The translations under genes were made by a program, and so were the position numbers. DNA of 64,000 bases from Candidatus Aenigmatarchaeota archaeon (GTDB lineage: Archaea; Aenigmatarchaeota; Aenigmatarchaeia; QMZP01), in the NCBI GenBank assembly GCA_043824495.1, contig JBDRSV010000024.1, forward strand, positions 91,056-155,055. The letters are read 5' to 3'. The notes under the pieces are model-generated. The model saw nothing but the letters and a program-made list of their open reading frames with translations. It had not been told where the DNA came from and made no database searches. Positions 35,877 through 45,038 of the stretch are shown piece after piece (position 1 is the stretch's first letter; each line of letters starts with the position of its first letter).

Positions 35877-36222
35877 TGAAACTAGTCTTAAATCGTAGGC
35901 ATCTTATAGATCCCGCCAGTGTCATTGGGCCACGCGTGAACTGGTTGTTCTCCTGAATGGCCAAGAGGTTCAGGTGCGTCCTATCGACCAGACGATAATT
36001 CTGATCGGACGCGATCCGGAATGTGACGTAATACTCGATAATCGCGCCGTCGACTTCTTCCATGCTCACATTGATTTCGGCGAGAATTTTGTAGTAATTG
36101 ACAACGTGTCACTCAACGGCACGTTTGTCAACGGAGAAAAGGTCGAGAAAGCGGTTCTCCGTCCTGGTGATGTGATCACAATAGCCAGGTATGAGATTCA
36201 CATCCGGTCCCTCCGGAAGTAG
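35877..36222 (+). pseudogene. FHA-domain protein, apparently frameshifted (or non-ATG start at GTG 35974)
   Basis: FHA core LVVLLNGQEVQVRPIDQTIILIGRDPECDVIL...NGTFVNGEKV lies in a frame with no ATG. A GGAGG SD plus ATG 35877 lie in another frame that terminates after 26 codons. Confidence 0.4.
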
Positions 36223-36935: not shown

Positions 36936-37589
36936 ATGACAAAACCAATCGCACTATCGGCAAGTAGCATAAGACTTTTCCTAGAGTGCCCTCGATGCTT
37001 CTGGCTGCATATAAACAAGAAGGTAAGAAGGCCTTCGGGAGCTTTCCCATCGTTGCCAGCGGGTATGGACAAGATACTCAAGATACACTTTGATGAGTAC
37101 AGGGAGAAAGGCAAGATACCAAAAGAGCTAGAAGGCAAATTCAGCGGCAAGCTTTTTGGTGATACAGAAATATTGGGTGTGTGGCGTAACAACAGAAAAG
37201 GGCTAAGACATACAGACAAAAAGAGTGGCATTATTCTCATGGGAGCGTTAGATGACCTCTTTGTCACCAATAATGGACAGTTTGCACCATTGGACTTCAA
37301 AACAAGAGGCTATCCCCTCAAGGAAGACACACATGAACACTATCAGCACCAGATGGACATTTACTCATATCTTCTAGAAAAGAACAACATGAAGACTGCA
37401 GGCTATGCAATACTCATATTCTACCATCCGAAACGTGTTACAAGCACATGCAATGTTGAGTTTAATGCAGACCCTTTGAAGGTGAAGACCAGCATAAAGG
37501 ACGGTGAGAAGATATTTTTGGATGCTGTAAAATGCCTTTCGGGGAAAGAGCCCAATCCTGGCAAGGACTGTGGGTTTTGTAGATGGTGA
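36936..37589 (+). CDS. Cas4-like PD-(D/E)XK nuclease with Cys cluster (solo; no CRISPR array or other cas genes in the window)
   Basis: N-terminal LECPRCFWL (the Cas4 CPRxFWL motif). LDFK motif. QhxxY motif (QMDIYSY). C-terminal C-x11-C-x2-C. Confidence 0.55.
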   Translation: MTKPIALSASSIRLFLECPRCFWLHINKKVRRPSGAFPSLPAGMDKILKIHFDEYREKGKIPKELEGKFSGKLFGDTEILGVWRNNRKGLRHTDKKSGIILMGALDDLFVTNNGQFAPLDFKTRGYPLKEDTHEHYQHQMDIYSYLLEKNNMKTAGYAILIFYHPKRVTSTCNVEFNADPLKVKTSIKDGEKIFLDAVKCLSGKEPNPGKDCGFCRW

Positions 37590-37696
37590 TTCAAATCTAT
37601 TTTCAGTGTCAAACAAACCTATTTAAATAAAACAGACCACTTTCTATTGGAACTAATTAAATATATACCAACTGAAACCAATAATTAATAGTTCAT

Positions 37697-38329
37697 ATGC
37701 TTATGGACGAACGAAAACCAGAAATAAAAATTGTAGATAGGTCATTCTTACTTTACCTTCTATCGAAGGCCCAAGAAGCTAAAGCAGAATTAGGTAGAAC
37801 CTTATTACAGAAATTTGTTTTCGCTACTGAGGTTACTACGAAAGGAAAGGGTGGTGGAGGGCTAAATTATTATATTTATAAATGGAAACATGGTCCATTT
37901 AGCAAAGAGCTTGCACAAGATAGAGAAGTTCTTCTAAAAAACAATTTAATAACAGATAGTAATGAACTTACAAAAGAAGGGCATAAAATATTATCATATA
38001 TTAATCCCATTGTTGATAAAGATTCGGAATCTAAAGCCGTAATAAGTGTAATAACTAAAACTCTTTCTGGGAGAAGCTTGTCTCATATATTAGAAATTAT
38101 TTATAAGTCCGATTTTGATCTCCCAAATGGGAAAAGAATGAAAATAAAGACAATACCAGAGGGGACTCCAATGATTTTCAGATCGGAAGAACGAGATGTT
38201 AAAAACAGATCTCTCTTCACAGAATCTACGATAGAAACACTGGCCATAATGATGAATAAGGAAAAACATTCTTCTCTTAAGAAAGCCATGTCAATGCCGA
38301 TGATAGGAGAATTCAAATATGATATATGA
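37697..38329 (+). CDS. Panacea-domain (DUF4065, SocA-like) putative antitoxin
   Basis: LQKFVFATEV...GLNYYIYKWKHGPFSKEL fits the DUF4065 pattern. Confidence 0.5.
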   Translation: MLMDERKPEIKIVDRSFLLYLLSKAQEAKAELGRTLLQKFVFATEVTTKGKGGGGLNYYIYKWKHGPFSKELAQDREVLLKNNLITDSNELTKEGHKILSYINPIVDKDSESKAVISVITKTLSGRSLSHILEIIYKSDFDLPNGKRMKIKTIPEGTPMIFRSEERDVKNRSLFTESTIETLAIMMNKEKHSSLKKAMSMPMIGEFKYDI

Positions 38330-38724
38330 TAAAAAAAAGATTTCTTGAAACTAGCGGATTTCGTGAATTCTTCCAAAGTTTGAGCGATTTCGACAAAAAA
38401 AATGTTAAAAAAATTATAGAAAAAATAAGAGAACGTGTGGAGTATAATATACTTAAACCAGATAGTTTTCTTCGCTATGAGTTTGCAGGCACGCGGAAAG
38501 AAAGAAGAGAAAGACTTAGAGTATTCTATCGCGTGTGTGAGGAATGCCGAAGACTAGGTCATGATAAAATCGAAGGCAGATGTCACGATTGCCCAAGAGA
38601 AGACGATATCATTTGTCTTATATGGGGAGACGATATTCGAGACGATGAAACATATAAAGATAAAACAATGCTTGACAGACCAGGAGCTAAAATAGATAAG
38701 AGGTCAAATGAATTCTGTGAATGA
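38326..38724 (+). CDS. HigB/Gp49-like (RelE/ParE superfamily) putative toxin with Zn-ribbon insertion
   Basis: FFQSLSDFDKKNVKKIIEKI...ILKPDSFLRYEFAGTRKE..RLRVFYRV pattern. CEEC...CHDC insert. ATGA overlap with the Panacea gene. Confidence 0.4.
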   Translation: MIKKRFLETSGFREFFQSLSDFDKKNVKKIIEKIRERVEYNILKPDSFLRYEFAGTRKERRERLRVFYRVCEECRRLGHDKIEGRCHDCPREDDIICLIWGDDIRDDETYKDKTMLDRPGAKIDKRSNEFCE

Positions 38725-38761
38725 ATTAATTTTTTATTTTACGGCGATTTTGGCCTAAAAC

Positions 38762-38995
38762 CTATCTATCAACAGTCTCTACCCACGGCGCTTTTCTCTC
38801 AGGCAGTTTACTTCCTTTGATCACTATCTTGAATTTTAGTGGATTAGTAATATGCTTTCTGAATTCGTCTTTCCTCATTTCTGTCAAGTGTCTGACTATC
38901 TCAACAACATTGAGTCTGTATTCTTCGCTGAATCCTTCTTTTGGTGGTTTAGGGTCCTTTATTCTAATGTCTTTTAGAATTATATCTACCATCAT
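38762..38995 (-). CDS. hypothetical protein
   Basis: 77 aa, same strand as the RM enzyme operon. Confidence 0.3.
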   Translation of the reverse strand: MMVDIILKDIRIKDPKPPKEGFSEEYRLNVVEIVRHLTEMRKDEFRKHITNPLKFKIVIKGSKLPERKAPWVETVDR

Positions 38996-39018
38996 TATAT
39001 TTGGAGCAAAGAAATAAA

Positions 39019-39324
39019 TTAGCTTTCAATTCGCGTGGGGAGCCCCGATTCTCTGAGGCGTTTTATACGTTCCTCATGAGTCATTTTACCTGTGCCTCTT
39101 TCTATAGAGTCCTTTATTTCTGTTTTAGATGCTTTGCATTCAGGACATTTGGTATGGACATCGAGCTTTTCTGGATGATATTTTGGTATCAATTTACTTC
39201 TTCCTGCAGCATGAGCTCTCCCTTCGCTATACCAATCAAGTGTTTTGGTAATATCAATATCCGCCTTTTTACAGAATGGGCACCTGATACTTTCTCTTGT
39301 AAATTCAGGTTTTGATCTTGTCAT
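39019..39324 (-). CDS. Zn-ribbon protein (CPFC...CPEC)
   Basis: Two CxxC pairs. Immediately downstream of the RM enzyme gene. Confidence 0.4.
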   Translation of the reverse strand: MTRSKPEFTRESIRCPFCKKADIDITKTLDWYSEGRAHAAGRSKLIPKYHPEKLDVHTKCPECKASKTEIKDSIERGTGKMTHEERIKRLRESGLPTRIES

Positions 39325-39329
39325 ATATC

Positions 39330-42056
39330 TTATATTTTCTCTATTATTTTCTTCTCTTCTTCTGTTATCCCGTATATTCTATATATATATGAATCTATTT
39401 CTTTGTCAATTCTTTGTATCTCATTTTCTATATGTACTCTTCTATCCGTTTTTTTGTCACCTATCTCATTTAAACTGTTATTCATAGAAATTATTTTATC
39501 AACTAAGTTAATGACATCTTTCTCTGTTTCTTTACTAACTAGTTTAATAGGAAATTTCTTCGTATTAGCAATTAGTATTTTTTGGAATAGCCTTTTTGAA
39601 GGATCTAAATATTTCTCTTTATGGTAAAAAGTCATTAGCTTTGAGTTTAAAATTGCTAGAATATATTTAATTTGATCAGAACTACCGTTCTTGGGTATTA
39701 TATTAAATCCTATTTGTGTGTTATATAACTCCTTTTCGGTATATCCAGCGTATATTTTTGGAGGTTTACCACTGATAATCTGTCTCACGACTATACGAGG
39801 TTTTAAGAAAAATCTCTGTTCTCTGGGAGCGCCTAGCCATTTCCCATAACTAATATATTCTGTTTGGTTCCATTTTATACCATATCTTATAATGCCTGCT
39901 CCAGATAAGAGGGGTTTGAAAGTTTCATTCTTTTTTGTTTCTGAATGAAAAACTTTATTTTTTATTTGATCTTGTGTATGACCTTTGTATTTATCATAAG
40001 GTGTTAATCCTAGCGAGAAATCGCACAAATCTATCAAAGGTTTTGTACCTTCTTCAATCTTTTTAATTATTTTACTTATAGTAGGATTTCGAGATATATT
40101 GATAATGTTATCACGACTCCAGTCTAGTTGATTAAATGTTGTGTATGTATTGCAATTTTCTTTGTCTATGAAACTTATCTTTTCTTCACTAGGATAAATC
40201 AAAAGTTCACATTTAGTACTTTTTGTTGGCTTCTTTTTTTGGTATATGAGTATTATGGTCTCTACTTTAGCCTTCTCAAAAACATTATCAGGAAGTCTCA
40301 CAATCTTTTTAAGAGTCGCTTCGTTTAATAGTAATTTTCTTATTTTTGAATATGATTGATTATATAGGATTGAATTCGGTATAATAAAACCGAAGTATCC
40401 TCCATTCTTTAGTAGACGGAAAGATTTTTCAACAAAAACTGAGTACAGATTCATTCTATTTTCTACTGTTTCATATGCCGAAAATAAATATTTAACAATT
40501 AGAGGATCTAGCTGTTTTATATCTACATACGGTGGATTACCAATTATAATATCAAAGGAACCTCCTTCAAAATCGTCTATCCATTTAAAAGAGTCTAATC
40601 CAGCAACCTCTTCAGCATCTATTAAACTGTTTCCATGACATATATGAGTATCAATCTCTGTGGGTAGTTTTCTTCCCTTTTCTGCAGCCTTCAGTAATAA
40701 ATTCAGTTTTGTTATTTCTACTGCTTTATTGTCTAAGTCCACACCGTAAAAGTTATTCTTAAGCATGTGTGTTTTAACTGAATAAATTCCCTGATAATCT
40801 AATCTCATTTGTTTTGCTTCTGGTTTTTGCATCATACTATTCAACAAATGATCAAAAGACTTTATTAAGAATGAACCAGAACCACACGCAGGGTCTAATA
40901 TTTTAATTTCTAATGGCTTCGTTTTTTTATCTGTTATTAACTCTCCTAAAGTGTTTCTAATAATATAATCTACTACATAAGTCGGTGTGTAATAAATGCC
41001 TTGTTCCTTTCTATGTAGTCTCGAATCTCTTAATTGAGCTTTCCCTGATTTCTTTTGATCAAGAATTAGACCCAAGTATTGCTCATAAACTTGACCTAGA
41101 ACATCAGCATCTATCCAGTCAAAATTATAAATGTATGTTTTGTCTTTCGATTCGTATAAATAATAAATTAAATTTTTAATTATAGATCCGTTGATATTGA
41201 TTGTATCACAATCATTATCTCTCGATATAGCAAACAAACCACTGTTATATACATCATCATATGTTTTGAATATTTCCTTCAGTTTTGTGTAAGCTTTACT
41301 ATCATGTAGGTGTTTTATATCGCTAAGTATAACACCATCAGGATTTATGTTTATGTCTTCACAGCGTCGAATAAATATAAGTCTGTCTAGAATTCTCTGG
41401 ACTATATCATCCTTCTCATCAATAGAATACTTTTTTGCATAGGTTTTCTCAATGTCGCTAGCAATTAAACTTCTTATAAGCATCAAATCATTAAGCAGGG
41501 TTTTATCGATAGAAACCCTTTTCTTCAATCTACCTTCATCTTCAGCTTTTTTAAGGATAATATTTTCTTCAAAACTGTTTTTTGATAAGAAAAGCAAATC
41601 TTCAAAGCTGTTGATATAATCTTCTGGGGTATTGAAAACTCGGAATTTATTTCTTATAGAATTTTCTTCCTCTACACAAAATATTCTTGTTTCTTCAAAG
41701 TTGGTTGATACTGCAAAAGGTACTCTCTTTGATAGTGCATATGATATTACTTGTTTATCCGCTTCTCTATCTAAAGATACACCAACCTTTTTGACTTCAA
41801 GAAAGAAAACAGTTCTGCCATTAATCTTAAAGGCGTAATCTGCGCGTCCTCTTTGACTTCCTCTATGTGCTTGAGACTGTTTATCAAAATCATTTCGCTC
41901 CCAACCAAGCAACTGAAAAAGAGGTTCAATTAATCTAGTTTCTGTATCAGCTTCTGACAGTTTTTTATATGATTCTTTGTCAGCGTTGAATTCGTTAATT
42001 AATTTTTGAATTTCCTCCTTAATGATCTCTTTATCCATATAATTAGAATGAAACAA
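39330..42056 (-). CDS. Type IIL/IIG restriction-modification enzyme (MmeI-like fusion of PD-ExK nuclease, gamma-class N6-adenine MTase and TRD)
   Basis: N-terminal RADYAF...FFLEVKK (D..ExK). ILDPACGSGSFL (motif I). FDIIIGNPPYV (motif IV). Confidence 0.65.
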   Translation of the reverse strand: MFHSNYMDKEIIKEEIQKLINEFNADKESYKKLSEADTETRLIEPLFQLLGWERNDFDKQSQAHRGSQRGRADYAFKINGRTVFFLEVKKVGVSLDREADKQVISYALSKRVPFAVSTNFEETRIFCVEEENSIRNKFRVFNTPEDYINSFEDLLFLSKNSFEENIILKKAEDEGRLKKRVSIDKTLLNDLMLIRSLIASDIEKTYAKKYSIDEKDDIVQRILDRLIFIRRCEDININPDGVILSDIKHLHDSKAYTKLKEIFKTYDDVYNSGLFAISRDNDCDTININGSIIKNLIYYLYESKDKTYIYNFDWIDADVLGQVYEQYLGLILDQKKSGKAQLRDSRLHRKEQGIYYTPTYVVDYIIRNTLGELITDKKTKPLEIKILDPACGSGSFLIKSFDHLLNSMMQKPEAKQMRLDYQGIYSVKTHMLKNNFYGVDLDNKAVEITKLNLLLKAAEKGRKLPTEIDTHICHGNSLIDAEEVAGLDSFKWIDDFEGGSFDIIIGNPPYVDIKQLDPLIVKYLFSAYETVENRMNLYSVFVEKSFRLLKNGGYFGFIIPNSILYNQSYSKIRKLLLNEATLKKIVRLPDNVFEKAKVETIILIYQKKKPTKSTKCELLIYPSEEKISFIDKENCNTYTTFNQLDWSRDNIINISRNPTISKIIKKIEEGTKPLIDLCDFSLGLTPYDKYKGHTQDQIKNKVFHSETKKNETFKPLLSGAGIIRYGIKWNQTEYISYGKWLGAPREQRFFLKPRIVVRQIISGKPPKIYAGYTEKELYNTQIGFNIIPKNGSSDQIKYILAILNSKLMTFYHKEKYLDPSKRLFQKILIANTKKFPIKLVSKETEKDVINLVDKIISMNNSLNEIGDKKTDRRVHIENEIQRIDKEIDSYIYRIYGITEEEKKIIEKI

Positions 42057-44027: not shown

Positions 44028-45038
44028 ATGCTTATGAAAACGAAACAACTTACTTTAGATCGAGACTGGAGCCAATATAACTTGGCCCAAACACAGGAGA
44101 AACTTCTATTCATGAGAATACTGAGTGATGCCGTTAATTCCATGAATATAGAATATACATACAAAGGCAACGGAAGACCAAGCATAGGCATAGAGGACAT
44201 GATAAAAGTCCTCGTGATAAAGGTTTTCAACGGCTTCTCGCAGAGGAGGACAATACCAGATTTGTATATGGCTAAAGGTTTAGGCTACATACCTGAAGTC
44301 CCACACTTCAATTCCATAAGCAACTACTTCAACAGCACTGAATTGACTTATTATCTTGAGCAGCTCTACAGGATATTGGCTATGCCATTCATTCCTATAG
44401 AACAGTACTTTGCTATCGATTCTACTGGTTTTGGTAAATACAATACCAATTGGACTGCCAGCAAATATAAAAACGCAAGCATGAGAAGCTTCAACAAGCT
44501 GCATATAATATGCGGAGTGCGGACAAACATAATTGTGATAGCTAAAGTGACAGATGCACACCAACACGATTCTCTTCAGTTTCCTAAGATGCTTAAGGAG
44601 ACATGCAAAATATTCACAGTAAAAGAGATCTCTGCAGACAAAGGATATCTAGCACTCTATAATGTGAATGCAGCTAAAGAATTAGGCGTAGTACCCTACA
44701 TAATGCCCAAGAAGAACACAAAGTTATATTCCAAAAAGAGATGGGTGGATGGAGAGGCATGGGATAGAATGGTACTCATGTGGAGACATAAAGAGGAAGA
44801 ATTCAGAAAACACTACCATCTGAGATCGAATGTTGAGAGCAGCTTCTCAATGATGAAGAGGAAGTTTCTTCCTTTCATAAGGAGTAAGAACCCTATTGCA
44901 CAGAAGAATGAAATTCTGGCTAAGGTTGCTTGTCACAATATATCCGTTCTTGTCCACTCAATCTTTGAATTGGGTTTAAACATAGATTTTAAAAATATAG
45001 ATTCAACAGATGAAAGGAGGGAATATTATGACGCCTGA
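44028..45038 (+). mobile_element. IS4/IS5-superfamily DDE transposase
   Basis: AIDSTGF and ISADKGYLA (second D) with VESSFSMMKRKF (E) form the DDE triad. Upstream hairpin GAGACTGGCG...CGCCAGTCTC at 44000. Confidence 0.6.

Follow-up and report, generated by a model that had tools for sequence, protein, structure and literature searches.

The closest described counterparts of the gene pair reported here are the type II PanA-PanT toxin-antitoxin systems (Kurata et al. 2022, PMC8832971; Ernits et al. 2023, PMC10440598), whose Panacea (DUF4065) antitoxins have already been reported with mRNA interferase and ParE partners (PMC8832971). Dataset S1 of that study contains several PanA/PanT clusters with toxins matching RelE, YoeB, or HigB-2 (by HHpred) or ParE_toxin (by CDD), for example, pT15/T14, pT69/T58, pT70/T59 (haloarchaea), and pT71/T60; some of these clusters are archaeal (Methanobrevibacter and haloarchaea), with overlapping genes in antitoxin-toxin order. 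Three domains appended to Panacea cores, Phd-C, PAD1, and ZBD, were shown to be neutralizing parts (PMC10440598). We analyzed a 64,000-nucleotide stretch of DNA (the window; contig JBDRSV010000024.1, forward-strand positions 91,056 to 155,055) from a metagenome-assembled genome (MAG) of Candidatus Aenigmatarchaeota, a DPANN archaeon, in which two overlapping plus-strand genes, here called A and B, probably form a two-gene type II toxin-antitoxin-like module of a PanA-type antitoxin (A) and a RelE/YoeB-type toxin (B). This kind of system, a Panacea protein with a RelE-like toxin, is already known, and the find adds only incrementally to a well-known class. What appears to be new is the size and invisibility of the subfamily, its fixed partnership with one toxin type, and a four-cysteine (C4) insert in the toxin.

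Gene A (positions 37697 to 38329) encodes a predicted, PanA-like antitoxin of 210 amino acids, and gene B (38326 to 38724) encodes a predicted toxin of 132 amino acids, a putative mRNA interferase of the RelE/ParE superfamily. The stop codon of A and the start codon of B overlap in an ATGA motif on the plus strand (38326 to 38329). Both open reading frames (ORFs) and their overlap proved to be as an earlier sequence-only reading of this DNA had described them, and the peptides quoted there were found at A residues 58 to 72 (YYIYKWKHGPFSKEL) and at B residues 48 to 59 (FLRYEFAGTRKE) and 63 to 70 (RLRVFYRV). At NCBI, both genes, ABIJ92_04425 (with its start placed at M3, giving 208 amino acids) and ABIJ92_04430, are labeled “hypothetical protein.” As in PanA-PanT systems, the antitoxin gene precedes a gene for a small toxin and overlaps it, the Panacea core lacks an N-terminal domain, the partner has a RelE/ParE-type fold, and the core carries an extension that may act as the neutralizer.

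Homology established at the family level makes A a divergent member of the Panacea-domain proteins. With a profile of A, an exhaustive HMMER search retrieved 383 cluster representatives at an E value of ≤1e-3, a lower bound on the number of clusters at 50% identity, and 150 at ≤1e-10; most were about 205 to 225 amino acids long and matched over their full length. We aligned 108 near-full-length members chosen for full-length coverage (alignment A5), in which K39 and G66 are invariant and L17 and P67 nearly so. Scanned individually, 67 of the 108 matched SocA_Panacea (PF13274) at E ≤ 0.01 (best, 1.5e-10). The hidden Markov model (HMM) consensus of the alignment matched the same profile with an E value of 2.2e-9 and 38.6 bits (gathering score, 25.7), over profile positions 1 to 108 of 113 and consensus positions 38 to 140, which correspond to A residues ~37 to 137 in the window. 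A tblastn search with A also found a gene annotated “DUF4065 domain-containing protein” on a Haloarcula plasmid, aligned over A residues 33 to 136. The family consensus and the tblastn match together delimit a predicted Panacea core at residues ~33 to 137 (37793 to 38107, plus strand), which includes K39, G66, and P67. The Panacea signature proposed for A in the sequence-only reading is thus borne out for the family to which it belongs.

Compared with the described PanA proteins, A differs in escaping detection by Pfam, and even a threshold of E ≤ 0.01 captures only some 60% of its family. In the genomic contexts that we inspected, precomputed Pfam matches of A homologues were weak at most, and 10 family members that we looked up were either unnamed or called “hypothetical protein.” Most of the family falls under the curated Pfam cutoff, and consequently its size is probably underestimated by standard annotation as well as by the published Panacea census. 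Haloarchaeal plasmid DUF4065 proteins were considered as further members and rejected, as they are shorter and have no neighboring zinc-insert RelE-like gene.

The second difference lies beyond the Pfam model, at the C terminus, where the family has an extension of its own of about 70 residues (residues 138 to 210; 38108 to 38326, plus strand), for which no match to Phd-C, PAD1, or ZBD was made. All 108 aligned members have it (occupancy, 0.97), partly as a result of selection for full-length sequences, and it is moderately conserved, with I150, P154, G156, T181, and L182 standing out. The ~150-amino-acid haloarchaeal DUF4065 proteins lack it.

In the PADLOC models, the only notable match to A was PDC-M19A (E = 3.5e-6; A residues 15 to 138, model positions 5 to 116 of 294), and 102 of the 108 aligned relatives matched it as well (best E, 7.3e-12). 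The similarity covers 112 of the 294 model positions, probably a shared Panacea core; B and its relatives match no component of PDC-M19, and the pair does not make up a complete system of that type. We found no description of PDC-M19 in the searchable literature, and the name is absent from the “embedded defences” preprint. The aligned A proteins also matched the PADLOC models “DarG” (33 of 108) and “Type I specificity subunit” (30 of 108); these profiles may contain a Panacea-like segment and carry a risk of misannotation.

For B, the family-level evidence points to the RelE/ParE superfamily. A profile of eight B proteins searched against the Protein Data Bank (PDB) returned YoeB (E = 0.0074), RelE (0.012), and Rv2866 (0.021) as its top matches, and every alignment ended at the C4 insert. 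HMM alignments of the family to YoeB/RelE and to ParE_toxin likewise break at this insert and continue once it is deleted. In one relative (L011), the native protein scored 21.6 bits against ParE_toxin, with the alignment broken off at the insert; after deletion it scored 30.3 bits (cutoff, 23) and the alignment reached the end of the model. A second relative (L007) scored 23.5 bits after the same deletion, and tblastn of its B protein against plasmids gave four matches, all on genes annotated “RelE/ParE family toxin.” Among the four insert-deleted B proteins of the window's own clade, all matched Toxin_YhaV (E = 0.017 to 0.063) and two matched ParE_toxin, the window protein at E = 0.0091, which is below the cutoff, and another at 0.069. 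By these profile comparisons the B family belongs with RelE/ParE proteins, and the window protein taken alone does so only marginally. B had been read from the sequence as HigB/Gp49-like; the superfamily was correctly recognized, and the subfamily is better described as RelE/YoeB-like, as no member of the family matched the Pfam HigB-like/Gp49 profiles (PF05015 and PF05973).

A low-confidence AlphaFold2 model of B has the order of elements of a RelE-like protein, with β1 (residues 5 to 8) followed by α1 (10 to 18), α2 (21 to 41), a β-strand (63 to 69), the cysteine region (71 to 89), and a further β-strand (92 to 100), in keeping with the β1, two-helix, antiparallel-sheet layout of the RelE/ParE fold. 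After a check of the Escherichia coli RelE and YoeB sequences against their PDB entries, we built a MAFFT alignment of both with the B family. Ten residues are invariant across the eight aligned B proteins (L49, G55, R57, R65, C71, E73, C74, C86, C89, and Y110). R65 is shared with RelE R61 and YoeB R65, and a C-terminal R/K-x3-4-Y motif (R105, which is Lys in one member, and Y110) corresponds to RelE R81/R83…Y87. B is only 15 to 19% identical to E. coli RelE (4v7k and 2kc8), YoeB (2a6q), and the Pyrococcus horikoshii aRelE (1wmi), and it differs from them in that its partner is not RelB or YefM but a Panacea protein. The window clade further adds a 22-residue tail after the conserved tyrosine (residues 111 to 132; 38656 to 38721, plus strand). 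This tail is restricted to the window and its sister loci (L001 to L004); most other members end 0 to 2 residues past the tyrosine, and in L011 an unrelated tail of 16 residues follows it.

RelE and ParE have a fold in common, and it is therefore also conceivable that B is a ParE-type poison of DNA gyrase or another topoisomerase, neutralized by A in the same way, a point that tells against B as an mRNA-cleaving enzyme. We consider this quite unlikely. The ParE_toxin profile (PF05016) spans RelE and ParE proteins alike, the top structural and PDB sequence matches are YoeB and RelE, and the family keeps both the RelE-type arginine (~R61) and the R/K-x3-4-Y motif. The latter is characteristic of RelE RNases and usually missing in ParE. 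Moreover, many DPANN archaea may lack gyrase.

The most distinctive feature of B is the C4 insert (CEEC-x11-CHDC; 38536 to 38592, plus strand), a putative zinc knuckle formed by C71, C74, C86, and C89. In the alignment of the family with RelE and YoeB, this module of about 19 residues takes the place of the short β3-β4 turn of RelE (IDEK). The two cysteine pairs had been noted in the sequence-only reading with a spacer of 13 residues; the pairs are real, and the spacer is 11 (C71-x2-C74-x11-C86-x2-C89). A CxxC-x10-11-CxxC motif, with the two CxxC pairs of a zinc knuckle or ribbon, is present at every intact family locus, and we infer from it that the insert binds a metal, presumably zinc; AlphaFold2 modeled this region at low confidence. 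Candidate roles for the knuckle are structural support, extra rRNA or mRNA contacts, and a docking site for the antitoxin, any of which could apply. We found no description of a C4 insert in the RelE β3-β4 hairpin in the searchable literature, and the insert appears to be new, with the cataloged RelE-like PanT proteins known to us from their listing rather than their sequences.

Could the pair instead be regulatory, with B a nontoxic protein that binds zinc and nucleic acid through a degenerate RelE scaffold and with A a winged-helix transcription regulator? Weak winged-helix matches at A residues ~76 to 111 (wHTH-PRTase_assc, HTH_45, CggR_N, and Sso10a) point in this direction, as do the PadR or helix-turn-helix (HTH) regulator labels that NCBI and PLSDB give to related short haloarchaeal DUF4065 genes and the weak similarity of the B consensus to the eIF2-beta/eIF5 zinc domain (E = 0.014 in one search and 0.6 to 2 in another). 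All of these winged-helix and zinc-domain matches are below threshold, however, and we take those of B to be cysteine-driven noise; the evidence for Panacea and RelE is much stronger. The catalytic-type residues of B are also invariant, and strict bicistronic coupling together with mobility is typical of toxin-antitoxin modules, so that we regard a regulatory pair as very improbable.

Coupling of the two genes was seen at every locus sampled. Word-indexed searches yielded a single relative of A and three relatives of B, all in four loci (L001 to L004) with an identical two-gene arrangement, in which A shares 49 to 52% and B 44 to 45% identity with its window counterpart and none of the four cysteines is lost. 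Context look-up covered eight further A relatives (P0008, P0009, P0010, P0012, P0015, P0040, P0079, and P0141; E = 1e-47 to 1e-11), and each of them adjoins a gene for a RelE-like protein of 100 to 117 amino acids with the CxxC-x10-11-CxxC motif, mostly immediately downstream. In total, the pair occurs at 13 other loci, which together with the window amount to 12 nonredundant loci. A zinc-insert partner is present at all 12 and is codirectional at 11; outside the window, the spacing is likewise tight, from a 17-nucleotide overlap to an 18-nucleotide gap. In local tblastn comparisons, the identity of A to the window protein drops from 52% to ~22% and B diverges in step; A and B alone recur among the loci, and none of the window's other neighbors does. 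The B gene of L006 is interrupted by the contig end. In L013, a zinc-knuckle RelE-like ORF (YIVCDECRKRGYESKILCLDC), uncalled in the source record, lies at ~900 to 1700 on the minus strand, convergent to the A homologue.

The recurrence of the same pair at other loci takes the arrangement beyond chance, and the coupling of A and B is strict. This strictness sets the family apart from the described systems, as partner swapping defines Panacea, whereas here A always has the same kind of toxin as its partner; further differences are the DPANN host and the C4 insert of that toxin. The family is known so far from metagenomes only. Back-translated A or B alignments, used as patterns to scan contigs from genomes, metagenomes, and viruses, gave no confirmed relative, searches of phage and viral collections yielded none (the A consensus also found nothing in phages), and the B consensus found nothing in plasmids.

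Several results weigh against the toxin-antitoxin assignment. In direct scans against Pfam and NCBIfam (E ≤ 1), A gave no DUF4065/Panacea match and native B gave no RelE, ParE, HigB, or Gp49 match, and the closest relatives of A reached E = 0.039 at best against the Panacea Pfam model; all domain evidence for A and B is transitive or family level. The AlphaFold2 prediction for A, made from a two-sequence alignment, had a pLDDT of 36.6 and lends no structural support to A or to an A-B interface, and PDB sequence searches with A profiles gave only noise (for example, CRASP-2, eL28, and TRPV3; E ≥ 0.013). The model of B, made from four sequences, is of low confidence (pLDDT, 51.5; pTM, 0.49), and its Foldseek matches in the PDB bear RelE and YoeB names at nonsignificant E values of 1.1 or worse. 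The residue equivalences between B and RelE are approximate, coming from MAFFT alignments at 15 to 20% identity. In addition, the cataloged Panacea-RelE-like pairs are marked “notest” (PMC8832971). Taken at face value, the direct scans, with neither a Panacea nor a RelE-family match, are the very outcome that the sequence-only reading had named as its refutation, and it is the family-level homology that overturns them. Panacea homology, a RelE-type partner, and the strict coupling of A and B support its suggestion of a PanA-PanT variant.

If the pair is a toxin-antitoxin module, A would be made first and probably translationally coupled to B through the ATGA overlap. The predicted action of B as a ribosome-dependent mRNA endonuclease is drawn from what is known of RelE and YoeB, for which Neubauer's 2009 work and related studies are said to provide the basis. 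Most likely, B would enter the ribosomal A site and cleave mRNA, with an Arg/Arg/Tyr set comparable to RelE R61, R81/R83, and Y87. By extension from the work on PanA (PMC8832971, PMC10440598), A would most likely bind B directly and hold it inactive. The best candidate for the neutralizing element is the C-terminal extension of A, as the analogous Phd-C, PAD1, and ZBD suggest, and the Panacea core may be a sensor, as the PanA authors propose. Loss or inactivation of A, by a biological trigger that we infer, would then free B, and the predicted toxicity would take the form of a shutdown of translation.

The AT-rich spacer 5′ of A contains two TATA-box-like elements, CTATTTAAATA (37619 to 37629) and CTAATTAAATA (37653 to 37663), which were also flagged as a repeat in the repeat scan and tentatively mark a putative archaeal promoter region (37619 to 37663, plus strand). 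An oligo-T tract, TTTTTTATTT (38730 to 38739, plus strand), begins 5 nucleotides past the B stop codon, within the 37-nucleotide gap to the convergent gene, and is a possible, tentative candidate for an archaeal terminator; a scan for bacterial-type terminators found none.

Rather than addiction or stabilization, the same architecture might serve antiviral abortive infection or defense, with the Panacea core sensing an infection cue and releasing or activating the RelE-like toxin, which would stop translation in infected cells. This reading has much in common with the module proposed here and departs from it in role and trigger only, and the surroundings of the pair bear on it. Immediately upstream lies a gene for a stand-alone Cas4-like PD-(D/E)XK nuclease with a C-terminal cysteine cluster (36936 to 37589, plus strand; Pfam PDDEXK_1, 4.6e-8; PADLOC Cas4, 7.6e-9); there are no cas genes among the neighbors examined, and CRISPR arrays were not searched for. 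Convergent with the pair is a minus-strand operon (38762 to 42056) that encodes a 908-amino-acid type IIG restriction-modification (RM) enzyme (39330 to 42056; Eco57I, N6_Mtase, TaqI_C, and HSDR_N; PADLOC REase_MTase_IIG, 1.2e-93) and two small proteins without family assignment, a 101-residue zinc-ribbon protein with two CxxC pairs (39019 to 39324) and the product of a 77-amino-acid ORF (38762 to 38995). We considered the nuclease, the RM enzyme, and the two small ORFs as a third component and rejected them, as none recurs at other A-B loci. The pair stands at the start of a low-GC stretch (31 to 37% GC, ~36 to 56 kb) that follows DNA of ~49% GC and includes an insertion sequence transposase gene (DDE_Tnp_1; 44028 to 45038, plus strand). 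Among distant relatives, the neighbors are an Eco57I-type RM gene (L007), a BglII endonuclease gene (L008), and an AAA_16 ATPase gene (L009). Some settings of the pair thus resemble defense islands, a qualitative association drawn from the few loci examined. A role in defense is also favored by the match of A to PDC-M19A, a defense-candidate model, of which B matches no component. In the nearest clade, however, the pair adjoins Orc1/Cdc6 rather than defense genes, and with no relative found in the phage and viral collections nothing ties the module to viruses. On balance, we regard a defense role as possible, if somewhat doubtful.

At all four sister loci, the pair is divergent from an adjacent minus-strand Orc1/Cdc6 gene (L001, 5716 to 6987; L002, 462 to 1724; L003, 1 to 825; L004, 3 to 620), with copies 51 to 54% identical to that of L001; the window contains no Orc1/Cdc6 homologue. 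This adjacency may mean that the pair sits close to an origin of replication or on an integrated element. Neighbors vary across the loci, and therefore the A-B module has moved between genomic settings. The window as a whole is a GC mosaic, with blocks of ~48 to 52% (1 to 2, 18 to 24, and 28 to 36 kb) and of ~31 to 37% (4 to 14, 24 to 28, 36 to 56, and 60 to 64 kb), which suggests either acquired islands or a chimeric MAG contig. An 82-amino-acid protein consisting only of an FHA domain is encoded at the GC boundary (35974 to 36222, plus strand), and the myo-inositol-1-phosphate synthase gene (47035 to 49560, minus strand) is split by an intein with a LAGLIDADG homing endonuclease.

A direct Pfam scan alone would have led to the wrongful dismissal of a correct reading of these sequences. 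Panacea antitoxins are noted for dozens of unrelated toxin partners, and the opposite appears to hold here, with one architecture pair at all sampled loci. In its boldest form, which we think unlikely, the finding would represent an unrecognized, probably largely archaeal Panacea lineage locked to one toxin type, with a zinc knuckle that is functional rather than decorative. If so, the knuckle could fit the toxin to the archaeal A site, dock the extension of A, or be a metal- or redox-sensitive release switch. Should the C4 insert be important for activity, it would illustrate a way of modifying or regulating a ribosome-dependent RNase.
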